From Candidatus Nanoarchaeia archaeon (GTDB lineage Archaea > Nanobdellota > Nanobdellia > Pacearchaeales > GW2011-AR1), in contig JBAQGX010000003.1 of the NCBI GenBank assembly GCA_049288015.1, positions 55,662-119,661 on the forward strand: a stretch of 64,000 nucleotides of DNA, in the 5' to 3' direction. Below the pieces are notes generated by a model. It did no database searches, had not been told where the DNA came from, and saw nothing but the letters and a program-made list of their open reading frames with translations. Shown here piece by piece: positions 7,251-64,000 of this stretch; position 1 is the stretch's first letter, and each line of letters opens with the position of its first letter. A program made the position numbers and the translations under genes.

Positions 7251-7763
7251 TTAATTCTGATGTAAAAAATCTAAAATCTTTTTAACAGACTCTTCGACAT
7301 TTTCTTTTGTAGAATTAATCTCTACTTCCGGAGATTCTGGAGGTTCGTAAGGAACGTGTAATCCAATAAAGTTTTTAATTTCCCCAATTTCTGCTTTTGC
7401 ATATAATCCCTTAACATCTCTTTTCTTGCATTCCTCATATGAGCATTTTACATATATTTCAATAAAATTATCTCCTAAAACTCTCCGTGCCATTTCACGG
7501 GATTCTTTGAAAGGCGAGATTATTGGAACTAATATGTAATCCACTATACCCATAGAGTCTTTGCACAACTCAACTATTAATCTATTATTTTCTTTTATAT
7601 CTTCAGGGGTAAATCCTAAATGCTTGTGCAATCTTTCTCTAACATCATCACCATCAAAGATTTCATAGCTTTTGCCAAGATTATCAAATTTTTTTCTGAG
7701 AAGGTCTGTGATGGTACTTTTACCACTTCCAGATAATCCAGTAAACCATAGAACTTGAGTCAT
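7251..7763 (-). CDS. cysC: adenylylsulfate (APS) kinase
   Basis: 170 aa. It has the FTGLSGSGKST P-loop and APS-kinase length. It overlaps the upstream sat fusion by 4 nt. Confidence 0.85.
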   Translation of the reverse strand: MTQVLWFTGLSGSGKSTITDLLRKKFDNLGKSYEIFDGDDVRERLHKHLGFTPEDIKENNRLIVELCKDSMGIVDYILVPIISPFKESREMARRVLGDNFIEIYVKCSYEECKKRDVKGLYAKAEIGEIKNFIGLHVPYEPPESPEVEINSTKENVEESVKKILDFLHQN

Positions 7764-9970
7764 TCTACAAAAACTTTATCTCCCTTCTTTATACTTTCAA
7801 TGATTATATCAGATATTTCTGGTCTCATAAACCATTCTGGAGGTCTTATACCCTTATTTAGCATTTCTCTTGCCTGAGTTCCAGAAATATGCATCTTATT
7901 TTCTTCAGGATAGTCAATAAAATCGGGTTCATGTATGTACTTGTTGTCTAAATCAGAATAAAAAACAGTATCAAATTTTATTATTTCCATACCAAGTTCT
8001 TCTTTTGTAAATTTGTTAAAGATTTTGTGAGAAGCTTGCGGATCATAAAAATTTCCAACTCCTGTATGATCTCTTCCAACAATAAAGTGAGAACATCCGA
8101 AGTTCTTTCTTACTAGTGCTGTAAAGACTGCTTCTCTTGGTCCACCATATCTAGAATATGTTCCCAGAGTTCCAAAAACAACTTTTGATTTAGGATAAAT
8201 GTCTTTAATCATCTTCTCATAAGTTTTGATTATTATATCTGACTCAAAATCTCCAATTTTTTTCTTTCCTATAACCGGATGAACAAATAAACCATCACAA
8301 AGTCCTCTTTTTAGTCCTTCCAATTGTACAAATTCATGAGATCTATGTATAACATTTCTTGTATGAAATCCAACTACTTTGCTCCACCCTCTTTCCGAAA
8401 ATATTTTTCTTGTCTGTTTAGGTGTTAATTCATGACTGTTCTGGGAAATTCTTTTTTTTATTAAGCTAATTTTTCCACCCAAAAAAGTATTTCCTCCATC
8501 CAAAAACTTTTTTACTCCCGGATGATTTTCATCCAAAGTTCCGTAAACTTTTAAGGCGAGGTCACTTTTGTTCAAATTATATATCTCTTCTATATGAAGT
8601 ATGGCGTAGACTTCATTATCTTTAGATAACGATACATCTTCATTTTCTTCAAAGTTATTGGATATTTTTTCATCTATTTTTAATAAAATTGGTAAAGGCC
8701 AAATTGCATTGTTGGGTAATCGCATGTTATCTGCAACAGATTCTGCTTCATTCTTTTTCATAAAACCTTCAATAGGACTAAATGAACCCATTGCAATTTG
8801 TTCCACATCCATTAAAGTTTCTTCATCAATCTCAATTTTTTTATTTGGAATTATTCCATTATAATTTGGAAAGAATCTATTTACAAGTTTACCTCCATGA
8901 GGTTTTACCAATATTTCTGGAACTTTATCTGATTTTATATAGTTAGAATTAATTATCTTAGTAACTAAATCTTCTCCTTTTTGACTATTCAAAAAATTAA
9001 CTTGCTTCATCAGTACAGATAGCATATTAACTGTCTCAACAGGGTATTTTCCGACAGCAGTTTCTTTTGTTAATGCAATACCACTAACCCCATCTAAAAG
9101 TGTATTTATTATATCATTAACCTCTGCCTTATTTGGTTTTAATGCCATAGACATTTGTTCCAAGGTATTTGTTGCAACAAAAATTTCTTTTCCAAGATCT
9201 CTAACATTCTTTATTATTAACTTTTGAATAAAAGGAATCTTTTCAAGAGGAATTTGTGAACTTAAATCTCCTCGGTCAATAAGTATTCCATCAGAAACTT
9301 TTGCAATTTCAATAAAATTTTCTAGACCTTTTTTTGATTCTATCTTTGAGTATACTATTGCTTCTGGATATATCTTTCTAAATTTTGATACACTTTCAGG
9401 ATCTTCCATAAAAGATAGCGTGAAGTGGTTTATATTATGCTTTTTTGCAAGTTCAATAGCAGTGTGATCTTTTTTACTAAAAGGAGGTAAATTAAAGGTA
9501 GGACTATCCACTAAAACTGCTTTCTTTCCTCCTACTAGTCCGCCAATTATAACTTCGCACAATATATATCCTTCAACTATTTTTGAAGTATCAAAAACTC
9601 TAAGCAGAACCGAATTAAAATCTATAGAGATTAAATCCCCTACATCTAATTTTTTTATAATCCCGCTTGGATTTAAAAAAAGATTATTAGCATCGCATTT
9701 AATAGGATCTCCAAATAATTTAATCAAGTCCCCATCATTAAATCTAATCTCTTCGGTGTTGCCGGATCTTATTTGTGACCCTTCGGTATCTAGTATTATA
9801 GGTACTCCATAATCTATAATATCCCTTATTTTTTCATCAATTTCGTTTTCCTCAGTATGAGAGAGATTTATCCTAAAAAAATCAACTCCGCTATTTTTTA
9901 ACTTCCCAAGAGTTTCTGGATTATTAGATGAAGGACCTATAGTGCATATGATTTTTGTGCCATTTATCAT
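7760..9970 (-). CDS. sat: bifunctional fusion: N-terminal pyruvate-kinase-like barrel domain plus C-terminal sulfate adenylyltransferase (ATP sulfurylase)
   Basis: 736 aa. The N-terminal ~330 aa carry PK motifs (KIICTIGP, FRINLSHT, DTEGSQIR, KIESKKGLEN, DRGDLS, TKETAVGKYP). The C-terminal ~400 aa carry ATP-sulfurylase motifs (GFHTRNVIHRSHE, IVGRDHTGVG). Confidence 0.8.
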   Translation of the reverse strand: MINGTKIICTIGPSSNNPETLGKLKNSGVDFFRINLSHTEENEIDEKIRDIIDYGVPIILDTEGSQIRSGNTEEIRFNDGDLIKLFGDPIKCDANNLFLNPSGIIKKLDVGDLISIDFNSVLLRVFDTSKIVEGYILCEVIIGGLVGGKKAVLVDSPTFNLPPFSKKDHTAIELAKKHNINHFTLSFMEDPESVSKFRKIYPEAIVYSKIESKKGLENFIEIAKVSDGILIDRGDLSSQIPLEKIPFIQKLIIKNVRDLGKEIFVATNTLEQMSMALKPNKAEVNDIINTLLDGVSGIALTKETAVGKYPVETVNMLSVLMKQVNFLNSQKGEDLVTKIINSNYIKSDKVPEILVKPHGGKLVNRFFPNYNGIIPNKKIEIDEETLMDVEQIAMGSFSPIEGFMKKNEAESVADNMRLPNNAIWPLPILLKIDEKISNNFEENEDVSLSKDNEVYAILHIEEIYNLNKSDLALKVYGTLDENHPGVKKFLDGGNTFLGGKISLIKKRISQNSHELTPKQTRKIFSERGWSKVVGFHTRNVIHRSHEFVQLEGLKRGLCDGLFVHPVIGKKKIGDFESDIIIKTYEKMIKDIYPKSKVVFGTLGTYSRYGGPREAVFTALVRKNFGCSHFIVGRDHTGVGNFYDPQASHKIFNKFTKEELGMEIIKFDTVFYSDLDNKYIHEPDFIDYPEENKMHISGTQAREMLNKGIRPPEWFMRPEISDIIIESIKKGDKVFVE

Positions 9971-10049: not shown

Positions 10050-10835
10050 ATGGTAATTACAATGGATGATAATATACTTTGGATTCATTTGCATCCTCCT
10101 AGAACTGGAGGTAACACCATTGTTGAGACGATACTTAAACACTTTCCAAGAGAGGAAATATATATGACCTCTCTAGCAAGATATGGGATAGATACAGAGA
10201 AATTTGATAAGAATAAGGTCAGATTTATATTGGGACATGCTACTTATTACGGGATAGATAAATTGGTCCCTCAAAGAGTTCCAAGATATTTTGTCATTCT
10301 AAGGGATCCTGCAGAAAGGCTTGTTTCACACTATAATGCTAAGATGCAAGATGAAGAGAAGAAGATACCATTTGATAAGTGGTATAAAAATCAGATAAAA
10401 AACGAGATGGTTAATTTTCTAGACTTAAAATTTAGGGGAAGTGAATCTAGCAGAATGCGTGTTCCCAGGTTTATTTTGCCCTTAATAAAGAGGGTTAGCT
10501 ATAAAACAGTCTACTTTTTTCAAACAATTTTATTCAATTTGTTTAATCTCAATAAAAAGAACGATTTGAAAAAATTGGAGAATGCAAAAAAGTTGTTGGA
10601 TCTGTGTTGGTTTGTCGGAACTACTGAAGGGAGTAAAAAAGATTTTAAATTTATTTTTAATTCTATCGGGTTAAAAGATGTAAAATATAAAGATAATGGC
10701 GTAAGTAAAAAAGTTGTTAAAATAGATAATCAGCTTAGAGAAAGGATCTATAAAGATAATTCTTTAGATGTTGAATTATATAAATATGGATTAGAACTTA
10801 ATAAAAGACTAAGAGAAAAATATAAAATTAAATAA
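10050..10835 (+). CDS. PAPS-dependent sulfotransferase family protein
   Basis: 261 aa. The 5'-PSB-like motif is HLHPPRTGGNT. The 3'-PB-like motif is ILRDPAERLVSHY, of the RDPxxRxxS type. It is divergent from sat-cysC. Confidence 0.65.
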   Translation: MVITMDDNILWIHLHPPRTGGNTIVETILKHFPREEIYMTSLARYGIDTEKFDKNKVRFILGHATYYGIDKLVPQRVPRYFVILRDPAERLVSHYNAKMQDEEKKIPFDKWYKNQIKNEMVNFLDLKFRGSESSRMRVPRFILPLIKRVSYKTVYFFQTILFNLFNLNKKNDLKKLENAKKLLDLCWFVGTTEGSKKDFKFIFNSIGLKDVKYKDNGVSKKVVKIDNQLRERIYKDNSLDVELYKYGLELNKRLREKYKIK

Positions 10836-52814: not shown

Positions 52815-53549
52815 TTAAGAAACATTAAAAGCCTGATTCAGAGTTGAGAAAGTTTCAGTCATATATCTTTCGGTTGCTGCCAGAATTTGACAATTGTTTA
52901 CATTAATATTATAACATCCAGGAGCTATTTCTTGAATATTTGTCTCATTTGAAGGCACTATATTTAAGTATACATACCTTATCTGAGGATCACAAGTCAT
53001 ATTAGAACTCTTCGTTACATTTATCCCCAAAGCATTTTGATATAAATTAACAAGGTTTGCAACTCCAAGTATACCATCACCATTACAATTAAGCTCACTT
53101 AAATTACTGCTTGAATTTATTACTAAATTTTGTCTTACATACAGACTTCCATTGAAAGGGACTTCTTTATCCAACATTCTTGGATCATAATTAAGATAGA
53201 TATTATATTCTGCATTAGATCCGTTAGACAAAGTCATAGGTATCTTTGTATCATAAAGAGTTTGCCCCTGCTCAATTGTAGTATCCACAATATATCTCAC
53301 CCCATCAACAGTAAAACTTTTTGAAGTATTTGATAGCAAAAGAATGAAGATGAATACTCCAACGAGTAATCCTATTATTACCAAAGTTATTAGAAGTATC
53401 TTACTTTCAGAAGCAATCTGTTTTTGACTAGGATGTTCCTTTTTATCTTCAACTTCTTCTGCTTTTTCGATATTATCTTCTATACTTTCTTCAATAGCTT
53501 CAATTTCTTTTTCTTTCTTATTACTCTTTGTTTTCTTGTTGGTTTTCAT
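52815..53549 (-). CDS. type-II (N-terminally anchored) surface protein, Asn/Cys-rich ectodomain
   Basis: 244 aa. A charged K/E N-terminus is followed by a single TM (LLITLVIIGLLVGVFIFILL) and an ectodomain with sequons and paired Cys. Confidence 0.5.
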   Translation of the reverse strand: MKTNKKTKSNKKEKEIEAIEESIEDNIEKAEEVEDKKEHPSQKQIASESKILLITLVIIGLLVGVFIFILLLSNTSKSFTVDGVRYIVDTTIEQGQTLYDTKIPMTLSNGSNAEYNIYLNYDPRMLDKEVPFNGSLYVRQNLVINSSSNLSELNCNGDGILGVANLVNLYQNALGINVTKSSNMTCDPQIRYVYLNIVPSNETNIQEIAPGCYNINVNNCQILAATERYMTETFSTLNQAFNVS

Positions 53550-54145
53550 TGTCTAATTCCAAATATTTTAAATAAAACATTGTCAACAGTCTTTATTAAA
53601 TCTTGTCCTTGTCCGTAAATATAAATACAGTTTTGTACTTGCATCACGCTCTGCTGTCCGCTGTTAATTATTATAAAATTGTTACTACAGTTTATATTCT
53701 GAGCAATTGTTTGGTTACACTGCATCCCGGCAGGGCAGGCATCTATTATTGAAGTGTTAAAAGAATATAGGTTTGATCTGACCTCAGACTCTGCATTCGA
53801 ATCGTCAGAATAAATATACAAAATTTTATTCGAAAAATCACCTAAGGTTTTTGTTATATTTGTTAAGTCCTGAGAGGAGATCTGTGAAGGATTGTAAGTA
53901 AAAACTAAGGTATTACCATTGTAATTTGAATACCAAAAACCGTTTTGGTTTAAAAAATTGATTCCGTTATAACTTATAGATTGTGTCGAATTAATGTTTG
54001 ATACATTATTATTTCCGGTAAGGTAATTCTGAAATGCATAGCCTAGGACACTTATTAGCATGACTCCTATTAGAATTATGCTTATTAAAAACTGATTTCT
54101 CTTCTTTTTTTTATCTTTTTCATACTTTGAAATAATCTTTCGCAT
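53546..54145 (-). CDS. type-II (N-terminally anchored) surface protein, Asn/Gln-rich ectodomain
   Basis: 199 aa. A basic N-terminus is followed by a single TM and an ectodomain with Cys pairs. It overlaps the downstream gene by 4 nt. Confidence 0.5.
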   Translation of the reverse strand: MRKIISKYEKDKKKKRNQFLISIILIGVMLISVLGYAFQNYLTGNNNVSNINSTQSISYNGINFLNQNGFWYSNYNGNTLVFTYNPSQISSQDLTNITKTLGDFSNKILYIYSDDSNAESEVRSNLYSFNTSIIDACPAGMQCNQTIAQNINCSNNFIIINSGQQSVMQVQNCIYIYGQGQDLIKTVDNVLFKIFGIRQ

Positions 54146-54276: not shown

Positions 54277-57102
54277 TTAGTGACTTGCTACCTGCAATTG
54301 AGCACTTGTTGAAGTTGTTCCAATGTACTTGTTACCCATAGTCATATCTGGCTTCTGAGTAGTCAAGTAAGTTGCAGCATTTTGTGTATCTGGGGCATCG
54401 TATCCGGCAACTAGCAATGCGACATATTGTGGCGCATTTAATACAGAGTTGTTGTATGTTTGAATCAAGAATTGTCCTGATCCTACACCGGTTGCTTGTG
54501 TCCAAGCACTTCCACAGTAAGCTCCTCCTACTAATGTAGCAGCAGCTGAATTAATACAGCTACCTCCAACAACAATTAAGTTGTCGTTCATTACAGAGGA
54601 AACTTGTGAATCTTTTACAAGTACTTGTCCTAACTGCAAAGCTCCTGATGTTGATGAAGAACCTGATGTAACACTTGAACCTAGACTACCAATGTACAAC
54701 TGCTCATATACCTGGTTTAGAGGATATGTAATTGTTGCAAATGGCGATGACGAACTGTCTGCGTTCTTTGTTACCTGAGTTCCCCAATAATCAACCCATA
54801 CATTCTGGTTTGAATCACTATACAAAGTTGTGGTATAATTTGTGGTAGATGTTGAGTAAACATTGCTTACTCCTAATGTACCTCCACTTGTACTTGCAAT
54901 ACCTGCAAGGGTAGTTACAAATGTATTATAGTTAGAGTTTACATCTCTACCTTCGATTAAGTTCACAGCGGTTGTATTTACTATAGTTGATGCAGTTCCA
55001 GGCTCTATTAAGTAAACATCTGTTCTATTAGTAGAGTTTGAAGGATCAGCCATAAATTCATATGTTAAGTTTGAAGCTTTGCTGCTTCCAACAGTAACAA
55101 ACACTGTTTGATTTGCAGACGCAAATGCATTACTATTGTTAGCTGAAATCCACAAATAGGCACTTCCATCAACAGTACCTGTACCACCAGTAATACTTAC
55201 TGTATAATTGGTAAGGTTCATGGCTGCAGCTCCACTAACTGTAATAGGTGTGAAAGTTACAGCTGTAACTCCTCCCCCATATGGAAGGTCTAATGTAGTT
55301 ACATTGTTTAAATTTCCATCAATATTACTTAACGTGAGGTTAAGTGGTTCATATAACTGTATTTGTCCATGATTCTGCGTAGAAATTGCAGGATATAACA
55401 AATAAGCACCTGATGAAGGAACTCCAGAATCACCTGTATATCTTATCTCTGCCCATGATGAATTTTCGAAATAAGCGGTATACGTCTTTCCATCTAATGT
55501 GAAAGTTGTATACGTTGTTCCGTTAGTTGCACCACTTAAACTAGTAATACCTTGTCCTTTAAGATTATAGGACTGTCCTGTTACTAGGTCGTAAAGCTGT
55601 ATGTAATCGCTTGTATAGTTTGTATCTGAGCTTGAAGCGTGAACAACGTTATAGACAGACTGCAACTGAATCATATGTCCTTCTAGTTGTCCAGAAGATC
55701 CAGTTCCTGTTATTACAATAGGACTCAATCCACCATTAACCGAAAGGTTAGCCATTTCATATGGATAAATTGGAGAAATGTAAGTTGCTCCTCCATATGT
55801 CAGGTTAACAGAACTGAATCTGTTGGTATCGTTGTATGCAAATGGCACACTAGCGTTGTAACCCATAAGATCAGTAAATCCTAATGTTGCAACTTGTCCG
55901 CTTGGAGTTATTGTAATAGTATCCCTTTGTGTGGTACCATTCAATGGATTACTTAATCCAGCATTAGTTATTTGGAAACTTCCGAATACAGGGTCTGTAA
56001 ACTTTTGACCTGCAAGTAAAGTGGCATTTGTAGATATCGGTGCCTCAACCTGAACAGTTATTCCTGTTAAAGCGCTCAATGTACCTGTAAAGTATACCAA
56101 TGTCCCTTGTATTGCAGTATTTGAAGTTCCAACCTGTACCGCAGATCCACTTGTCATAGTAATTTGGTTTGCTCCCAATAAAATTGTAGCTGAACCAGTT
56201 GCTGTTCCCGAACTTGGGAATACGCTTGTTGTTGCAACATTTACTCCATTAATTAATTGGGGTGTTCCTATACTTAACGTTCCAGCAACACCATCAACTG
56301 TTAATTGTACCTGAGTACTACTAACTGCATTTAATGCAATTGTATGACTTACTCCGCTTATACTTACAGTTGTACTATTTCCCTGAGCCAAATTTACGGT
56401 TTGTGCAGAAGAGTATAGTAATAAACTACTTGATCCAGCGGCCATAGTACCTACAACATATTGGTTTCCAAATAGTGTTATAGGAATTCCCTGACTGCTA
56501 GAAGCTGTAAAGTTTATAGGCTGGCTGAATGCTATCGTTGCATTATACAAATAGTTCGAGAAATTGTTTACACCTATGCTAAGTCCCACGGATGGGTTGT
56601 AAGCACTTGTTGGCATTTTAGAAAACTCAACTTTTCCTGAGTTATCTGCACTACCTGATGAAGTTGTACTGATTGTACCAGGCCCAAGAGTTATAGTCTG
56701 GGTGGTCGTTGCAGCGACATTACCTCCGAAGGTAGTAGTTCCAAGAAGTGTTGGAAAATCTGAACTTGTATAAGCTGTTTTAGCAGTAGTCAATGTAGTG
56801 TTTAGCCATATCTTATTGGATCCTCCCTGATCTAAAGCTTCAACTGCTCCGTTTGTTGTTGTAACTACTCCGCCAGATGTTCCAGTTAGATATGATTGCA
56901 AGTTGGTTTGTATATTTCCTGCTTGTACCACATCTAAAGGAGAAACTCCAGCACCAGTACCATAAACAATAGCAACGTTACTTGCTGCTCCGTTCTGCAC
57001 GAAAGGTGCGGGGAAAGGAGTTGCTGCAGCGAAAGCTGTAGTCATACCGGCCAATAAAACACTTGCTCCGATTGCTGCGATTTTTTTAAAGTTAAATCTC
57101 AT
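54277..57102 (-). CDS. S-layer-like major surface glycoprotein
   Basis: 941 aa with a signal peptide (LLAGMTTAFAAA). Composition is T/S/G/A/N-rich beta-type with many N-x-T/S sequons. The GC content is locally elevated and the codon-biased frame is clean. A strong SD and a terminator flank the gene. Confidence 0.65.
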   Translation of the reverse strand: MRFNFKKIAAIGASVLLAGMTTAFAAATPFPAPFVQNGAASNVAIVYGTGAGVSPLDVVQAGNIQTNLQSYLTGTSGGVVTTTNGAVEALDQGGSNKIWLNTTLTTAKTAYTSSDFPTLLGTTTFGGNVAATTTQTITLGPGTISTTSSGSADNSGKVEFSKMPTSAYNPSVGLSIGVNNFSNYLYNATIAFSQPINFTASSSQGIPITLFGNQYVVGTMAAGSSSLLLYSSAQTVNLAQGNSTTVSISGVSHTIALNAVSSTQVQLTVDGVAGTLSIGTPQLINGVNVATTSVFPSSGTATGSATILLGANQITMTSGSAVQVGTSNTAIQGTLVYFTGTLSALTGITVQVEAPISTNATLLAGQKFTDPVFGSFQITNAGLSNPLNGTTQRDTITITPSGQVATLGFTDLMGYNASVPFAYNDTNRFSSVNLTYGGATYISPIYPYEMANLSVNGGLSPIVITGTGSSGQLEGHMIQLQSVYNVVHASSSDTNYTSDYIQLYDLVTGQSYNLKGQGITSLSGATNGTTYTTFTLDGKTYTAYFENSSWAEIRYTGDSGVPSSGAYLLYPAISTQNHGQIQLYEPLNLTLSNIDGNLNNVTTLDLPYGGGVTAVTFTPITVSGAAAMNLTNYTVSITGGTGTVDGSAYLWISANNSNAFASANQTVFVTVGSSKASNLTYEFMADPSNSTNRTDVYLIEPGTASTIVNTTAVNLIEGRDVNSNYNTFVTTLAGIASTSGGTLGVSNVYSTSTTNYTTTLYSDSNQNVWVDYWGTQVTKNADSSSSPFATITYPLNQVYEQLYIGSLGSSVTSGSSSTSGALQLGQVLVKDSQVSSVMNDNLIVVGGSCINSAAATLVGGAYCGSAWTQATGVGSGQFLIQTYNNSVLNAPQYVALLVAGYDAPDTQNAATYLTTQKPDMTMGNKYIGTTSTSAQLQVASH

Positions 57103-57521: not shown

Positions 57522-57881
57522 ATGGCAAAAGAAAAGTCAAAAATTAAAGAGATTTTCCTGACTTATAATAAAGGAGCCTTTTCTTTATTTAAGAAGCCAG
57601 GATACTCAAGAAAAGATTATAATTTCGAGGATTTATCCCAATTAAGGCATCTACTAAGCAATGAAAAAGCAAGGATCTTAGAGGTAATAAAGTCCCAGAA
57701 TCCTTCATCAATATATGAACTTGCAAAGAAACTAGGAAGAAATTTTAAAGCAGTAAATGATGATGTTAAGCTACTTAAGAAGTTTGGATTCATAGACTTA
57801 AAAGAAGAATTAACCAAAAAAAGAAAAAGGTTTAGACCTATAATTGTAGTGGATACATTAGATATACATTTTACATTGTAG
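57522..57881 (+). CDS. winged-helix (ArsR/MarR-like HTH) transcriptional regulator
   Basis: 119 aa. An HTH-like segment (KARILEVIKSQNPSSIYELAKKLGRNFKAVNDDVKLLKKFGFI) is present. The gene is convergent with the pilin genes. Confidence 0.5.
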   Translation: MAKEKSKIKEIFLTYNKGAFSLFKKPGYSRKDYNFEDLSQLRHLLSNEKARILEVIKSQNPSSIYELAKKLGRNFKAVNDDVKLLKKFGFIDLKEELTKKRKRFRPIIVVDTLDIHFTL

Positions 57882-57884
57882 TGC

Positions 57885-58379
57885 CTAAGAATAGGCACTG
57901 AATATAATACGCACAGAAGTTCCTCCCTTTGAAAGAGGCTGCGAGTTTCCTTGCGAATTGCTAGTTATATTACCTTCTTTTACCGAAAAGATTTCTCCTG
58001 TACTTGAACTAATATTCATAATATACCCCTTTATTGAGCTTCCCTGCCCTACAATCCAAGTTTGATTTAAAATTCCCCTTAGAGTTGAATTTAGTATTTG
58101 ACAACTATTTATAGAAGGGTTATTTGTCCGATCTAAACAATTAGTTCCTGAACCGCACATAAAGATTAGATCTCTTACCGAAATATATCCATAATAATTT
58201 TGACATTGTGTGCTTGTTTGTAGAGTTGAAGTTACAAAACTCTCGGCCTCATAGCTTTGGACAGTTTGATTTCCGGAACTATTCAGAAAAAATCCTAAAA
58301 ACACAAGCAAAATTATAGATACGATTATTATAATCAGTGCAAATCCAATCATTTCTTCCTGAGCTCTTTTATTTTTCAT
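57885..58379 (-). CDS. prepilin-like protein with class III signal peptide
   Basis: The start was chosen at MKNKRAQEEMIGFALIIIIVSIIL, forming an ATGA overlap with the upstream stop. The ORF track starts at 58418. Confidence 0.55.
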   Translation of the reverse strand: MKNKRAQEEMIGFALIIIIVSIILLVFLGFFLNSSGNQTVQSYEAESFVTSTLQTSTQCQNYYGYISVRDLIFMCGSGTNCLDRTNNPSINSCQILNSTLRGILNQTWIVGQGSSIKGYIMNISSSTGEIFSVKEGNITSNSQGNSQPLSKGGTSVRIIFSAYS

Positions 58380-58897
58380 GTTCCTTGGTATGTTACAATT
58401 ATTTTTGCAAGATTGCATTCTATAGATCCATTAATTGAATATCCACATAAAGAAACAATGTTTGAAGTTCCTGTTCCGTTGTTTGTTGGTATTAATGTTA
58501 TTTTATTACAATTTGGAAAATTTGAGATAGTACACTCGACATTATCTGTTTGCGGATATACGGTTCTTATTTGAATACCTTGAACTCCCCAGAAAGTTCC
58601 GTTGCCATATATTTTCAAATTATTCTCCAAACTTATAACTTTGTCCACATCAATGCACGAGCTCATTCCAGTTCCAAAATAGTTACTAAAACTATCCCCA
58701 CATGAAAACTCGGGAGAATCTGAAATCTTTGAAACTAAAAGTTGAGCATTATCTTGCTGTAAGACTGATGCTTTTTGTTTTAGCCCATTTACTGAAGTAA
58801 CCAGGACAAACATTCCCGCCAGGACAAAGAATAATGTTACCGCAATAAGCATAAAAGTCATCTGTTGGATTTTCAATTGACCTTTTTTTGTTTTCAT
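58376..58897 (-). CDS. prepilin-like protein with class III signal peptide
   Basis: The start was chosen at MKTKKGQLKIQQMTFMLIAVTLFFVL. The ORF-track start at 58933 would overlap the upstream gene by 35 nt. Confidence 0.55.
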   Translation of the reverse strand: MKTKKGQLKIQQMTFMLIAVTLFFVLAGMFVLVTSVNGLKQKASVLQQDNAQLLVSKISDSPEFSCGDSFSNYFGTGMSSCIDVDKVISLENNLKIYGNGTFWGVQGIQIRTVYPQTDNVECTISNFPNCNKITLIPTNNGTGTSNIVSLCGYSINGSIECNLAKIIVTYQGT

Positions 58898-58898
58898 T

Positions 58899-59825
58899 TT
58901 ACCAAAGTTTGCATGTTGAAGCATCATTTTCATTTTGAAGTTGACTTGTAAGAGGTATTAGGTTGATCATGTCTTGAGAATTTTGGAATGAGTTTAACAT
59001 CGAGTTTAATTGCATAAGATCTGGATTAGGAGTACATGACTGGATTGCATTAGATTTTTCAATATACAATGAGGAGAGCTCTGCATCTCTTTCCATTAAT
59101 CTTTTTAATTGACATTCATAAATACTGCTATCTGAGAAAATAGCGCCATACATTAAGGCGTCACCATAAAAGTTTAATGTGCTCCCATTTTTTGTTACCT
59201 CTTCTCTAGTGTAATCAACATTGATATCGCAATTGCTTCCAGAGAAGCAAACTTTTATGCTATTCTGGGGACAGTTTGTTGTATCATTGGTTAATCTGAT
59301 ATTGCCTTCGTTAAGATTTGACAATTCTTCCTGTATACTCTGAGGAGAATTAACAAAACAATAATCTACAGAAGATGAGGTCATATATATTAAATCAGAA
59401 ACTTCAAAAGGAAAACTAAATGGCTTTGAAAAAAGATAAAATTGTCTTCCGTCAGAAACATTATCCGAAAAAATGTATTTATCTCCAAATGTTACTCCGT
59501 TAGTTTGAGGAGACCATTTCCCTAAGCTTAACTGTGATAAGCTAAGTATTTGCAATCCAAAAGTCCCACTAAAATTTTCACATTGATTGTATATTCTTGT
59601 TTCCACTGGCAAACTTATTGAAGTAATCTGTCCTGATTGGAAACTTGTTTGAAGAGGATTAAGAAGGGCCGCAATTTCACTTCCTGCCTCAGCAGTAGTT
59701 GAAGATTGTCCAATATTCATTATTCTTGTTACCGTAAAAATTGCAATTGCAAGAATAATAGCACCTGCAATAATTCCAAACAGCCAGGCAAATGAAATTT
59801 CTAAAAATCCTCTTTTATTCTTCAT
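58899..59825 (-). CDS. prepilin-like protein with class III signal peptide (larger, 308 aa)
   Basis: It starts MKNKRGFLEISFAWLFGIIAGAIILAIAIF, with a KRG cleavage-site context and a hydrophobic N-terminal helix. Confidence 0.6.
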   Translation of the reverse strand: MKNKRGFLEISFAWLFGIIAGAIILAIAIFTVTRIMNIGQSSTTAEAGSEIAALLNPLQTSFQSGQITSISLPVETRIYNQCENFSGTFGLQILSLSQLSLGKWSPQTNGVTFGDKYIFSDNVSDGRQFYLFSKPFSFPFEVSDLIYMTSSSVDYCFVNSPQSIQEELSNLNEGNIRLTNDTTNCPQNSIKVCFSGSNCDINVDYTREEVTKNGSTLNFYGDALMYGAIFSDSSIYECQLKRLMERDAELSSLYIEKSNAIQSCTPNPDLMQLNSMLNSFQNSQDMINLIPLTSQLQNENDASTCKLW

Positions 59826-59828
59826 TTT

Positions 59829-60260
59829 CTAATGTACTGTTACTAATGTGTCTCCAAAATTTTTCTGAAGAATTAGATTCACATTGCCATTCACTACAGG
59901 GAAGCATGAATTACTACTTGAAGTTATTGCGCTTATATTAAGATTTTCTATGTTTCCTCCGGGAGCACTATATCCGTTAGCACCATTGAGAACAACATCG
60001 TCTCCATTCGTATTAACAAAACAAACTTCTTTTATTGAACTAGGAAGACTGTAAGATTTTGTTTGGCTTGACTGATCAGAATTCCATACTACGTTGACAT
60101 CTTTCTGAAGATTGTCCGAGAATTGGCTTATTTTTACGCTATCTTGCAAACCCAAGAACTTTTGTATCACAAAAAAAGCAAATCCTATAAAGACAATTAT
60201 GAGCACTATGGAGAAAATCATACCAAACGAAAGCTGGATCTGCCCCCTTTTGTTTCTCAT
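59829..60260 (-). CDS. prepilin-like protein with class III signal peptide
   Basis: It starts MRNKRGQIQLSFGMIFSIVLIIVF, resembling euryarchaeal type IV pilins of the RGQ-ISLEF type. Confidence 0.6.
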   Translation of the reverse strand: MRNKRGQIQLSFGMIFSIVLIIVFIGFAFFVIQKFLGLQDSVKISQFSDNLQKDVNVVWNSDQSSQTKSYSLPSSIKEVCFVNTNGDDVVLNGANGYSAPGGNIENLNISAITSSSNSCFPVVNGNVNLILQKNFGDTLVTVH

Positions 60261-60292
60261 TCAATAAATAAATTAAATAAGCTTATAAATTT

Positions 60293-62740
60293 TTAGAAAT
60301 TAATTGAAGAAGGATTTAATATAATACTACATGCATTCTGAGGCTGATTTCCAAATTGGTCTTCACACTTTATATAATAAGTCTGATCAGAAACCCATCC
60401 AGTGCTATGAGTTATATTGTCAAGAGTTGTCAATGGAATTCCTTGACTGAATGGATATGTACAATCGACAATATCATAAACACAGTTCCCTGCTCTATCT
60501 GTTTCTATATTTAATGTGTTTGTTCCTGAGTCATGATAAGCTCTTACAACATTTGGAGGAGTCGTAATTGACTGTACATTAAAGTTTATACTAGAATAAT
60601 CCGCGTCTCCTGCAAAGTCGACACACTTTAAATAGTAAGTATAATTGCCAGGAGTAAGCCATAAATCCTGTGTGCTCTGATAAGAAGTAGTATTTGAGAA
60701 CTGCATATAGGTACTCTCATCAGGATTAGTGCTATAATAACATGTGGAACTTCCGGAATTATATCCTCCTGAAGTCTGAAGGTTCAGTGTAACATCAATA
60801 TTTGTCGTTGATCCTGTAATCGTTGTCTGATTAGGGCTTGCGGAAGTAATAGACAACTGACTGCTTGATCCTGATAAGACAAAAGGATAAGACTGCTGAT
60901 TTATATTGCCATTAGTGTCGTTACATCTGAAGTAGAAATTACTTGTAGCTCCATTAACTATTCCAGTAAGATTTGCAATACAAGAGAATAATCCTAATGG
61001 AGTTGGAGCAGCACGACAGGACATATTGTTTGGCATACTTTGATAGCTTTGGTCTGTGTGACTCCATCTACATCCGGTAACTTGCTTATTTATGAAAACA
61101 GAAACATCGGTTGAAAATGTTCCAAAGGATATTGGAGTTCCTGTTGCAGGCGATGTAGATACAATACTTGGGGGAGTTACATCTGGAGTCTGATCTGCAT
61201 TGAATTGTATAACATATGCTCCTGTATCAGAAGCATTGTTTACATTGTTACATCTTATGTAATAATCTGTCTGCCCACTTTGTTGTACACTTAAACTAGT
61301 TCCAGTTTGATTCTTGAAAACGGGAATTTCAAAGGTGTGATTATATGTTCCATCAGGATTCCTTATACCCCATGTACCTTCATTTCCATTTATTCCGCCG
61401 TCCGTTCCAATCAAGAAACCTGTTGCAGTCATGTTAGCATAAGAATTTCCCCTTATAGGACTAACCATACACTGGGCTGCTTGATCAGTCTGTATCCCAA
61501 GAGATAGTATAGTATAAGGAGATATGTTTGGAGTTATCAAAACTCCCGTATCTCCAGGATATGAAGGAGCAGGCATAGGCTTGTAGTTAAGGGTATTTCC
61601 ATTAGATAAAGATAATACATTTCCCAAGAAAGTTATAACAGGTTGTGGTGCATTTTGATTTGTTGCAATACAAATTGGTTGCCCATTTTGTCCTGCATTT
61701 ATTAGTTCACATGCTGTTCCTAAACTTGCACATTCATATGCTGTACAAGTTAGTCCATTCTTTCCACATTTGCTGCAATCACTTCCACCATAAGGTGCTT
61801 GCCAAGGAACACATTGAATGACAACAGCATCATCTTTTGTATCTTGTGAAAATATTAAATAAGCTGCGACTACAATTATAGCTGTTGTTCCTCCCACTAT
61901 CCATCCTAAAGGTCCAGCAGCAACTGTACCTATTCCTGCAGGGAATATTTCTGCAGCAAGAACTCCAGTGAATGTTCCTGCAGTAAAGGCTAATTGCGCC
62001 CCTGTAAGAATAGAATCCCATGTGCTTCCCGGAGCTGCATTAACCCAAAGCTTGATGAGTGAAATTACTCCCAAAACTGCTACCGCTGCACCGGCTGCCA
62101 CACCAATTGCTATGGTGAGTGCCCAAACTCCTCCCCAAAGAGTTTGCCCAGTAAATAAAGTTGTTAGTGGTGCTGCTGCAGTTGCTGTTCCTGCAGGTAA
62201 TCCTGATGCAGACCCAGAGAGATAGGCACTAGCGGGCAATCCATTTGTTGTTGCTGGGGGTACATAGGGGGTTGTAGCTGCTGCAGGTAATCCCGTTGTT
62301 TCACTTCCAGACAATGATGTGGCTCCTGGTGATGATACAGGTGTACGGGCCGGAGCTCCTCCCGGGAGATATCTAGATCCAGATGAAGCAAGGGATCCCA
62401 CCTGCGATATTTCAGATAATACACTAGATATCTGTGTGGATAATCCTGCTGTAGATGAAGGAGGAGGGCTTGATGGTGCTGCACTAGGAGGAGTCGTTGC
62501 TGCAGGAGGTGAAGGTAAAGTATTTTCTGTAGTAGTACAATATCCAGTACCAGCACTAACTATATAGCAAAATTCACCCGTTGAACATCCTGAACTATCG
62601 TGACAAGCATTGCCTACGACAGCAGAAACTACACCAACTTCGCTTCCGATAGCATAAGAAACTGAAACAATTCCAATTAGTAATATTAAAATCTGGCTCA
62701 AGGCCATTCCCACCGATTTCTTATAAAATATTTTTTTCAT
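60293..62740 (-). CDS. large polytopic Cys-rich surface protein with mucin-like P/S/T/A linker
   Basis: 815 aa. The layout is an N-terminal anchor, a small Cys knot, an approximately 150-aa P/S/T/A low-complexity linker, 3 TM helices and a roughly 500-aa Cys/Asn-rich C-terminal ectodomain. Confidence 0.55.
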   Translation of the reverse strand: MKKIFYKKSVGMALSQILILLIGIVSVSYAIGSEVGVVSAVVGNACHDSSGCSTGEFCYIVSAGTGYCTTTENTLPSPPAATTPPSAAPSSPPPSSTAGLSTQISSVLSEISQVGSLASSGSRYLPGGAPARTPVSSPGATSLSGSETTGLPAAATTPYVPPATTNGLPASAYLSGSASGLPAGTATAAAPLTTLFTGQTLWGGVWALTIAIGVAAGAAVAVLGVISLIKLWVNAAPGSTWDSILTGAQLAFTAGTFTGVLAAEIFPAGIGTVAAGPLGWIVGGTTAIIVVAAYLIFSQDTKDDAVVIQCVPWQAPYGGSDCSKCGKNGLTCTAYECASLGTACELINAGQNGQPICIATNQNAPQPVITFLGNVLSLSNGNTLNYKPMPAPSYPGDTGVLITPNISPYTILSLGIQTDQAAQCMVSPIRGNSYANMTATGFLIGTDGGINGNEGTWGIRNPDGTYNHTFEIPVFKNQTGTSLSVQQSGQTDYYIRCNNVNNASDTGAYVIQFNADQTPDVTPPSIVSTSPATGTPISFGTFSTDVSVFINKQVTGCRWSHTDQSYQSMPNNMSCRAAPTPLGLFSCIANLTGIVNGATSNFYFRCNDTNGNINQQSYPFVLSGSSSQLSITSASPNQTTITGSTTNIDVTLNLQTSGGYNSGSSTCYYSTNPDESTYMQFSNTTSYQSTQDLWLTPGNYTYYLKCVDFAGDADYSSINFNVQSITTPPNVVRAYHDSGTNTLNIETDRAGNCVYDIVDCTYPFSQGIPLTTLDNITHSTGWVSDQTYYIKCEDQFGNQPQNACSIILNPSSINF

Positions 62741-64000
62741 TTAGCCATAAGAGGGTTTCCCCAAAAGTATTTTGAATAAATCATTCATTCCATTTGTTCC
62801 ACTAGTCCCAATATAATTCACGCTTACACCGCAATCTCCGATAGAAGAACAGATATTAGATACACTTGATGCCCATGGTTGTGATAAACTCTCACCATTA
62901 TCTAAACAAACAACATCATTTGCAGGTGAAATAGCCCAAGGAGCGTTGAATATGCTTGCTCCTTTACTTCTCGTATAATTCTCGTAACAAACCATACTCC
63001 CCATAAAACACAAATCCTTTGCACTTGGGCCTTGTATATTCAAATTGCCTGAAGAGCTTAGTAGTCCATTTACAGAAATATCAAATCCAGGAGTATACTT
63101 CGGAACACATGAAGCTCCAGGTCTTGGATCTAGTGCTCTTGATGTATCATCTTGTCTTGGAACTAAGATATCATTTACACTGTCATAAACATAAGGTAAT
63201 CCCGTTGAATTATCTTTTAAGATGCTATACCCAATAATCCATTGACAATCTCTTGTAGTATTATCCAAACAAGACTTACTGCTGTTTTGATAATAACAAT
63301 CTTGCCATCTGTTCAAAGTAAGATAAGAACTGAAGTACCCATTTGAAGTTTCATTTTGGACACATACTTTCTGTCTGGCATCATATGTTTCTGTTGTGAT
63401 TTCTCCATTCTGACATATGAATAAAGTATCAACATTTCCAGGTAAATCTAAAGATTTGTTAAAAGTCACTGTATCAGGAAGGGTGTAACTTACAGAACCA
63501 GTACCAAAACCATTATTCCCGCTTCCGCTTTGTCCTGGCGTCGAAGATGAACTTGAACCAGGATCTCCTCCGAACACAAGATTCCCGTTAGACTCTGTTC
63601 CACACCAACTTTCTCCATTAACGGGATATTGAAGAATTTGATTTGACTGTCTTTGAGTTCCGTAAGTTTGAACAAATTGTGGGACAAAGGTCCCGCTCTT
63701 GCAATTTAAATCTCTGCATATGTAATCTCCAATTGCAGGCTTACTACTATCTATTGTTGGATCATATTTCATGCATGTGCTTCCAGCAAGATAATTACAA
63801 TTACCATTACTTGCAGATTCTACATCTCCAGCATTATCGCTATCTGGAGCTGATGCTACTAAATAATCCCAATAACTTTCATTAGTATACTGCTTCTGAT
63901 CATATATGTTAGCAGTGTTTCCGCAGCTATCGATATAGAATATCTGATCTGAGGCAGATGAACAAGTCGTTTCTTGCGTCTTTACACAATTTGTTCCTAG
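62741..64000 (-). CDS. Cys-rich secreted protein, 5'-partial (N-terminus outside window)
   Basis: The frame is open to the window edge; the ORF-track M at 63772 is internal. It has more than 25 Cys, sequons and a G/S-rich linker. Its stop abuts the start of the 815-aa gene. Confidence 0.5.
   Translation of the reverse strand, partial: LGTNCVKTQETTCSSASDQIFYIDSCGNTANIYDQKQYTNESYWDYLVASAPDSDNAGDVESASNGNCNYLAGSTCMKYDPTIDSSKPAIGDYICRDLNCKSGTFVPQFVQTYGTQRQSNQILQYPVNGESWCGTESNGNLVFGGDPGSSSSSTPGQSGSGNNGFGTGSVSYTLPDTVTFNKSLDLPGNVDTLFICQNGEITTETYDARQKVCVQNETSNGYFSSYLTLNRWQDCYYQNSSKSCLDNTTRDCQWIIGYSILKDNSTGLPYVYDSVNDILVPRQDDTSRALDPRPGASCVPKYTPGFDISVNGLLSSSGNLNIQGPSAKDLCFMGSMVCYENYTRSKGASIFNAPWAISPANDVVCLDNGESLSQPWASSVSNICSSIGDCGVSVNYIGTSGTNGMNDLFKILLGKPSYG

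Follow-up and report, generated by a model that had tools for sequence, protein, structure and literature searches.

A 64,000-nucleotide stretch of the genome of a Candidatus Nanoarchaeia archaeon (contig JBAQGX010000003.1, positions 55,662 to 119,661, referred to below as the window) contains four adjacent minus-strand genes, here called G1 to G4, whose products combine a short basic leader with a hydrophobic N-terminal segment. We consider it probable, at roughly 60%, that the G1-G4 proteins and a fifth protein of 278 amino acids are type IV pilin-like proteins, which would be processed by a prepilin peptidase of the EppA/PibD type and built into a filament or a short pseudopilus by a motor whose genes lie elsewhere. 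The evidence comes from sequence motifs and their conservation among orthologues, from synteny, from promoters and from predicted folds.

Four packed genes with basic leaders and hydrophobic N-termini

The genes and the predicted N-termini of their products are as follows (coordinates here and below are those of the window unless stated otherwise).

59829-60260, minus strand: G1, 143 residues, leader MRNKRG followed by QIQLSFGMIFSIVLII, from the open reading frame (ORF) and the sequence
60260-60243, minus strand: G1 leader MRNKRG, giving the predicted mature N-terminus QIQLSFGMIFS
58899-59825, minus strand: G2, 308 residues, leader MKNKRG followed by FLEISFAWLFGII (FLEISFAWLF)
58376-58897, minus strand: G3, 173 residues counted from MKTKKG, followed by QLKIQQMTFMLIAV (QLKIQQMTFML); the raw ORF extends to 58933
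57885-58379, minus strand: G4, 164 residues counted from MKNKRA, followed by QEEMIGFALIIII (QEEMIGFALII); the raw ORF extends to 58418

In each of the four proteins, about 20 hydrophobic residues follow the leader. The spacers are 3 nucleotides between G1 and G2 and 1 nucleotide between G2 and G3, and the start of G4 overlaps the stop of G3 (ATGA). An earlier reading of this DNA from its letters alone (the sequence-only reading) had described four packed minus-strand genes at 57885-60260 with a basic leader and a hydrophobic stretch, and the ORFs and the sequence bear this out.

That reading had also named a FlaFind-type predictor as a check. We ran a FlaFind-like scan over all ORFs of at least 80 amino acids on both strands of the window, looking for hydrophobic, uncharged stretches preceded by [KR][GAS][ALIFQMVEDY] among the first 25 residues. 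All of G1-G4 were picked up, and the only further match was the gene for an 815-residue protein directly upstream of G1. Since no other ORF of this size in the 64 kb showed the pattern, the clustering of G1-G4 is not due to chance.

Conservation around the predicted cleavage site

Orthologues were compared at the species level, with about 70 per family, and residues were counted relative to the predicted cleavage site. Position -1 was G, A or S in all 69 G1 orthologues, and position +1 was Q in 62 of them, followed by the almost invariant residues S5, F6, G7, M8, I9, F10 and S11. All 77 G3 orthologues had G, A or S at -1, and Q+1, K+3, Q+5 and Q+6 were each present in every one. The 75 G4 orthologues all had A, G or S at -1 and QEE at +1 to +3, with an invariant G6-F7. 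In the family of the 278-residue protein, all 42 orthologues had G or A at -1 and Q at +1. A glutamine at +1, the residue associated with EppA recognition, thus occurred in 90-100% of the G1, G3 and G4 orthologues and throughout the 278-residue family, but not in G2, the orthologues of which carry [KR][GA] and then F, Y, A or G at +1, with an invariant xSFxWxF.

The leaders behaved differently from the site and the sequence after it. Positions -2 and -3 were mostly K or R, and farther upstream length and sequence varied freely, with the nearest ATG 3-48 codons upstream of the cleavage site in the orthologues, and 3-12 codons upstream in most of them. A charged leader ending in [KR]-[G/A] and followed by about 20 hydrophobic residues was found in all four families, and in all four the mature hydrophobic N-terminus was nearly invariant while the basic leader varied. 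The combination of a variable leader, a small residue at -1, an invariant glutamine at +1 and a conserved mature N-terminus fits the pattern expected of prepilin peptidase substrates. In Methanococcus maripaludis, glutamine at +1 is needed for processing by EppA (PMC4390842).

An internal contrast is provided by a 199-residue membrane protein encoded nearby. In its family, the cytoplasmic N-terminal segment is conserved in both sequence and length (MRKIISKYEE..KKRNQ), and there is no G or A at -1, indicating from the alignment that this protein is a plain signal anchor and not a carrier of a class III signal peptide. The sequence-only reading had assigned class III signal peptides to G1-G4 and had named an alignment of the N-termini as a check. 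Carried out on the orthologues, this alignment showed a conserved -1/+1 site and a variable leader, and together with the helix-plus-beta folds predicted for G1 and G2 (see below) it supports the assignment.

Start sites and promoters

The start of G1 could be examined with the help of a promoter element.

60282-60289, minus strand: TATA box TTTATAAG, preceded by an A-run resembling a transcription factor B recognition element (BRE), 29 nucleotides upstream of the G1 ATG

This TATA box is placed directly after the stop of the gene for the 815-residue protein, and the G1 ATG is at 60260. The motif [TC]TTATAA[GA] with a preceding A-run was present upstream of G1 in 38 of 69 orthologues, and the first in-frame ATG lay exactly 29 nucleotides past the motif in 33 of 37 motif-bearing ones. 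The gene for the 278-residue protein has a TATA box of its own, with an ATG 29 nucleotides downstream in 27 of 29 orthologues. By comparison, [TC]TTATAA[GA] was nearly absent before G2 (4/74), G3 (1/78) and G4 (0/76). A fixed spacing between TATA box and ATG is what is expected of leaderless archaeal transcripts, and the spacing seen here implies, as far as sequence can tell, that the G1-G4 transcript is leaderless. Because the spacing is fixed, the start of G1 is pinned and the variation in the length of its leader is genuine: with starts fixed by the TATA box, leaders measured 4-24 amino acids in G1 and 5-30 amino acids in the 278-residue family. The distribution of the motif defines two putative transcription units, one with the genes for the 278-, 625- and about 800-residue proteins and the other with G1-G4.

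Upstream of the [KR][GA] site, no sequence conservation was found among orthologues, except over the conserved C-terminus of the preceding gene product (CKLW, encoded in another frame). This absence of conservation, the nearby ATG in most orthologues and the TATA box 29 nucleotides before G1 speak for the start codons that the sequence-only reading had chosen in place of the longer ORFs. It had allowed that upstream starts might be backed by conservation; none was, the only conserved stretch being the overlapping CKLW.

Predicted structures

AlphaFold2 (AF2) models covered G1 and G2. The G1 model (mean predicted local distance difference test score, pLDDT, 84.7; predicted template modelling score, pTM, 0.66) has a helix from residue 12 to 59 followed by seven strands. 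In the G2 model (mean pLDDT 83, pTM 0.77), a helix spanning residues 12 to 60 is joined by a beta domain, a mixed alpha/beta part and, at the C-terminus, a bundle of helices. Both models therefore show the lollipop architecture of a long N-terminal helix with a mostly beta domain. The globular part of G2 is large and contains eight conserved cysteines. Its last four residues, C-K-L-W before the stop codon (58899-58910, minus strand), are almost invariant, and the cysteine among them is one of the eight.

We found no structural match of the globular domains to solved pilins or archaellins, and a sequence profile search of the PDB with the G1 and G2 families returned nothing below E 0.06.

Four separate families with a shared N-terminus

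The sequence-only reading had described a tandem array of prepilin-like genes. The prepilin-like character stands, but not the view of an array of paralogues. When the profiles of G1-G4 were compared with hhalign, similarity was confined to the N-terminal 30-60 residues. G1 and G3 matched with a probability of 79%, again at the N-terminus only, and the remaining pairs stayed below 20%. Recent tandem duplication is ruled out by this restriction of similarity to the first 30-60 residues. According to these profiles, G1-G4 are four separate 1:1 orthologous families that share a pilin-type N-terminus, and not duplicates of each other. Similarity of the N-termini alone is also what is seen in sets of pilins, and in this respect it supports the pilin interpretation.

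All four families are found in related archaea. A protein identical to G1 is encoded in a 'Candidatus Nanoarchaeia archaeon' metagenome-assembled genome (MAG), and an exhaustive profile search with the G1 family reached 1319 clusters at 50% identity (E<=1e-3). Among the best 150 of these 1319 clusters there was no bridge to known pilin families. Several G1 homologues carry the Joint Genome Institute (JGI) label 'UPF0333 family', which is the only outside label that we found and speaks for the pilin interpretation. G2 has more than 1000 homologues, the best 120 of which are 46-74% identical and annotated as 'hypothetical protein' or left unnamed; the named sources among those listed are Pacearchaeota, Nanoarchaeota or Nanoarchaeia MAGs.

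A conserved gene island next to an S-layer gene

The genes around G1-G4 are listed here in the order in which they are read on the minus strand.

about 64620-65456, outside the window (L003:4370-5206), minus strand: fifth pilin-like gene, 278 residues, leader MFMKKRGNDFVDNFKFTKSKRA followed by QVTIFIILGII, heading the island
62741-64000, minus strand: 3' part of the gene for a secreted, Cys-rich protein of 625 residues, cut by the window end (full gene 62741-64618)
60293-62740, minus strand: gene for an 815-residue envelope protein, directly upstream of G1, a candidate adhesin or anchor
57522-57881, plus strand: gene for a 119-residue helix-turn-helix (HTH) regulator of the HVO_A0114 family (PF25212, E 2.4e-19), convergent with G4
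54277-57102, minus strand: gene for a surface layer (S-layer) protein of 941 residues, downstream of the cluster
52815-54145, minus strand: genes for two syntenic membrane-anchored proteins of 199 and 244 residues, downstream of the S-layer gene

We scanned a single genome for each GTDB species and found 208 loci, 80 of which were fetched; 85 loci were examined. Each of G1, G2, G3 and G4 was present in 79-85 of the 85 loci, and their order was identical in every arrangement recovered. The full order is 278-residue gene, 625-residue gene, about 800-residue gene, G1-G4, convergent HTH regulator, about 900-residue gene (the S-layer gene), and the 199- and 244-residue genes. The core of it (815-residue gene, G1, G2, G3, G4, S-layer gene) was kept in 58 of 85 loci. 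On this comparison, G1-G4 are part of an island conserved in Pacearchaeota and Woesearchaeota. The sequence-only reading had limited the set to four genes, which does not hold, since a fifth pilin-like gene (278 residues, KRA/QVTIFII) heads the island just outside the window. We found no description of this island in the papers that were searched.

The 815-residue protein carries a signal peptide of the Sec type, in which a VSA site is conserved, as well as a linker rich in Pro, Ser and Thr, a hydrophobic segment with multiple spans and a large ectodomain. The ectodomain is Cys-rich and gave Ig-like Big_13 matches in 20 of 43 orthologues. In 69 of 85 loci the gene for this protein is the one before G1, although the sequence between the two can be long. 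Its match in the FlaFind-like scan had made it a candidate for a sixth class III protein; it was rejected, as in its orthologues no G or A is conserved ahead of the hydrophobic region, whereas a VSA-type signal peptidase I site is conserved behind it. In orthologues of the 625-residue protein, a Sec-like signal peptide is accompanied by a conserved CxE.T..GAWCQ motif.

On the other side of the cluster, an HTH homologue was found on the opposite strand, at most 300 nucleotides past the G4 stop, in 62 of 75 loci. Located between G4 and the S-layer gene, this protein is a candidate regulator of the envelope island. The S-layer family was recognized through PF05124 (S_layer_C), which matched 28 of 35 orthologues with a best E of 8.4e-13; the window copy of the 941-residue protein gave no match, being below detection. 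We take S_layer_C to be a family of the Methanococcales type. No C-terminal anchor is visible in the sequence of the 941-residue protein. Its gene is intact in the window, whereas in the European Nucleotide Archive (ENA) copy of the same contig (contig_42673, 228,819 bp) an indel splits it into 718 and 229 residues (L003:12724-15550), which could reflect an assembly error or strain-level variation.

The G1-G2 gap exceeded 200 nucleotides in 16 of 63 loci, and all six gaps that we inspected (L020:9048-10000, L027, L033, L064, L035 and L029) contained a two-gene insert of about 1 kb. By eye, the insert encodes an HTH/nucleotidyltransferase-like protein (ending ...YGFWEVF) and a HEPN-like protein, resembling a toxin-antitoxin pair, and it recalls the DPANN family described as 'MNT-HEPN in housekeeping context' (PMC6393860). 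One complete archaeal island is located on a 147-kb contig filed as 'Patescibacteria group bacterium' (L068, JAHYJW010000002.1), so that this bin is probably mislabelled or mixed.

The G+C content of the window is 30-40%. Elsewhere it contains genes for ribosomal proteins (L1, L10, L11), SecY/SecDF, FtsZ/SepF and glycosylation. A 736-residue protein (7760-9970, minus strand) has a pyruvate-kinase barrel domain (PF00224) fused to PUA_2 and ATP-sulfurylase domains, an unusual-looking fusion. It adjoins genes for an APS kinase and a sulfotransferase (7251-7763, minus strand, and 10050-10835, plus strand) within a glycosyltransferase/flippase cluster, and this neighbourhood suggests sulfated surface glycans.

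Proposed processing, assembly and role

If the pilin interpretation is correct, the short basic leader would keep the N-terminus of each protein in the cytoplasm, where an archaeal prepilin peptidase would cut after the G or A at -1. The new N-terminus would be Gln, or Phe/Tyr in the case of G2. The invariance of Gln at +1 makes an enzyme of the EppA type the likeliest peptidase. A type IV filament ATPase and a platform protein encoded elsewhere would then pull the hydrophobic N-terminal helices from the membrane, and these helices would pack as the core of a filament or short pseudopilus.

The five globular domains are not homologous to each other, and each is a single-copy orthologue with an invariant N-terminal signature of its own, which makes a defined hetero-oligomer the most likely product. 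By analogy, the five-protein set would most likely resemble the minor-pilin priming or tip complexes of bacterial type IV pili and type II secretion systems. G1 is a candidate for the main subunit, as it is the smallest of the proteins and the first behind a strong leaderless promoter. G2 could be a large tip or adaptor subunit, and the Cys-rich 625-residue and Ig-like 815-residue proteins could be presented adhesins or an envelope anchor. Ordered docking could be reflected in two features, the acidic QEE of G4 and the Lys that is invariant at +3 of G3. The fixed position of the cluster beside the S-layer gene suggests a structure that is built together with the S-layer or passes through it, and the adjacent protein with an Ig-like ectodomain and the S-layer gene itself fit a surface structure. 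Pili-like appendages on ultrasmall cells and strong host attachment of Pacearchaeota have been reported (PMC7906910), and the filament or envelope complex may serve attachment to a host.

Counterevidence and alternative explanations

Several results weigh against the pilin interpretation, and those on family membership are collected here first. No match to PF04021 was obtained for G1-G4 at E<=1 (window proteins). It was also missing among the 25 families listed of the 51 that the 69 G1 orthologues matched. At E<=10 it was again not matched by G1, by the isolated N-terminal peptides of G1-G4 or by four G1 homologues with the JGI UPF0333 label. PF07790 (Pilin_N) and TIGR02537 were not matched in Pfam or NCBIfam at E<=1. 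We therefore rejected membership in a curated pilin family: Pfam and NCBIfam scans with the four proteins, with 69-73 G1/G4 orthologues and with the N-terminal peptides returned only transmembrane-driven noise, such as Tetraspanin, MLANA, DUF7248 and YxzE. The closeness to euryarchaeal 'RGQ-ISLEF' pilins that the sequence-only reading had seen holds as an analogy between motifs, but does not demonstrate family membership. In addition, the globular domains keep 40-50% identity throughout an order-level radiation, a degree of conservation that is unusual for pilins.

The search for assembly machinery also counts against the interpretation. The sequence-only reading had reported no assembly ATPase, platform protein or prepilin peptidase in the window, and this holds for the 46 window proteins scanned against Pfam (all ORFs of at least 100 amino acids, other than those overlapping on the opposite strand, to either side of the ribosomal-protein block, which spans about 23.5-35.2 kb), among which T2SSE, T2SSF and Peptidase_A24 were absent. 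Nor were assembly genes found when 5.9 kb before the window start were added (about 5.4 kb of this being new sequence). In the 5.8 kb past the window end, precomputed Pfam assignments named a primase and PCNA only, with three genes lacking a match and no assembly genes. A motif scan within 10 kb in the 85 loci, for the secretion-ATPase Walker A with GE.R and for GxGDxK, was likewise negative. A motor encoded elsewhere in the genome is nevertheless plausible, because some DPANN are reported to have type IV filament systems 1 and 4A (bioRxiv 10.64898/2026.04.22.720090) and major and minor pilin genes are often distant from pilB/pilC (PMC6098224).

Could the proteins be processed or pilin-like and yet form a fixed envelope complex instead of an extended pilus, anchoring or organizing the S-layer and the Ig-like and Cys-rich proteins? 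Such a complex, comparable to the archaellin-like FlaF/FlaG, which bind the S-layer, or to a bindosome-like pseudopilus, is possible, if clearly less probable than pilin-type assembly. Strict synteny with the S-layer gene and other envelope proteins, globular domains that are all highly conserved and 1:1 orthologous, the lack of motor genes nearby and the lack of a visible C-terminal anchor in the window S-layer protein are all in keeping with it, and FlaF, a monotopic beta-sandwich protein that binds the S-layer, provides a precedent (PMC4425475). However, nothing physically ties the G1-G4 proteins to the S-layer, the synteny may only reflect co-regulation of envelope genes, and the invariant Gln at +1 and small residue at -1 imply the processing route of filament subunits. 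In an unlikely variant, the five pilin-like proteins and the 815- and 625-residue proteins would form a DPANN-specific envelope organelle of fixed stoichiometry. This stalk or short pseudopilus would cross or anchor the S-layer and mediate host contact, possibly without a canonical type IV filament motor in these reduced genomes, and the families would be the 'missing' nanoarchaeal pilins noted in 2016.

The two remaining explanations do without a prepilin peptidase. G1-G4 might be unprocessed single-pass signal anchors (N-terminus in, C-terminus out) with [KR][GA]Q serving only as a positive-inside flank; the missing matches to curated pilin families and to pilin structures, the missing peptidase among the scanned window proteins and the transmembrane origin of all weak Pfam matches would agree with this. 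We regard it as quite improbable, since such a flank alone cannot explain why, in four unrelated families whose leaders vary freely, -1 is G, A or S in 100% of sequences and +1 is invariably Gln. Moreover, the true signal anchor in the neighbourhood (199 residues) shows the opposite pattern, and the AF2 helix of about 48 residues is twice as long as a membrane span. The lowest probability is given to Sec-type signal peptides that are removed by signal peptidase I to release soluble secreted proteins. The neighbouring 815- and 625-residue proteins do appear to use Sec signal peptides, but in G1-G4 no part of the protein is as conserved as the hydrophobic segment, which runs on into a long helix and has no conserved AxA-type site after it. 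Pilin-type processing and assembly of G1-G4 therefore remains our preferred explanation.

Significance

The Pacearchaeota and Woesearchaeota are small-genome archaea that are abundant but uncultivated and presumably spend their lives attached to a host; their surface proteins are mostly annotated as 'hypothetical'. The island, with five pilin-like families whose predicted processing sites are sharply defined, two large surface proteins, a regulator and an S-layer gene in fixed order, is a concrete and testable candidate for an attachment apparatus. With this set, hundreds of genomes can be annotated and metaproteomes searched for mature N-termini, and it can guide cryo-electron tomography and heterologous expression. 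Archaeal pilin-like proteins with class III signal peptides were already known. What is new are the families themselves, the fixed set of five members, its linkage with the S-layer gene and the pair of leaderless promoters.

Comparison with known systems

The NEQ255 family (PMC6393860), compared here by its description, is similarly DPANN-specific and secreted and has the same kind of gene neighbourhood, but it is not described as pilin-like in that paper. It may correspond to one of the families of the island. FlaF and FlaG (ArlF/ArlG) combine an N-terminal hydrophobic helix with a beta-sandwich and have a functional link to the S-layer (PMC4425475). Unlike G1-G4, however, they are encoded in archaellum operons with FlaH/I/J, none of which are found at the island, and no homology was detected.

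The Epd pili of Methanococcus maripaludis, with minor pilins EpdA-C, major pilin EpdE and peptidase EppA, represent archaeal type IV filament 'system 1'. They share with the island proteins the short basic leader, the G or A at -1 and a Gln that is obligatory at +1 (PMC4390842). In both, a single operon contains several different pilin genes, 'system 1' has been reported in some DPANN, and the S-layer gene of the island belongs to the S_layer_C family (PF05124). In contrast to the Epd proteins, G1-G4 have no PF04021/UPF0333 match and their globular domains have no detectable homology, and there are no eppA, ATPase or platform genes at the island locus. G1 has Q-x-x-L-S-F-G in place of QxSxE, the motif of the PF04021 family.

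Bacterial priming complexes (FimU-PilVWX with PilY1; GspH-I-J-K) differ from the island in that no sequence or fold homology was detected and the island leader is of the archaeal type, without Glu at +5. The comparison is thus one of the way of working and not of family membership. What they share is organization: four or five mutually non-homologous pilin-like proteins are encoded together, one member is much larger than the others (G2 versus GspK/PilX), a large non-pilin surface protein is encoded alongside (the Ig-like 815-residue protein versus PilY1), and each member has a conserved N-terminal signature of its own. For the island, the hhalign results, the gene order in nearly all loci and the single promoter before G1 all point to co-transcribed, non-homologous, single-copy pilin-like genes, as in these bacterial systems.

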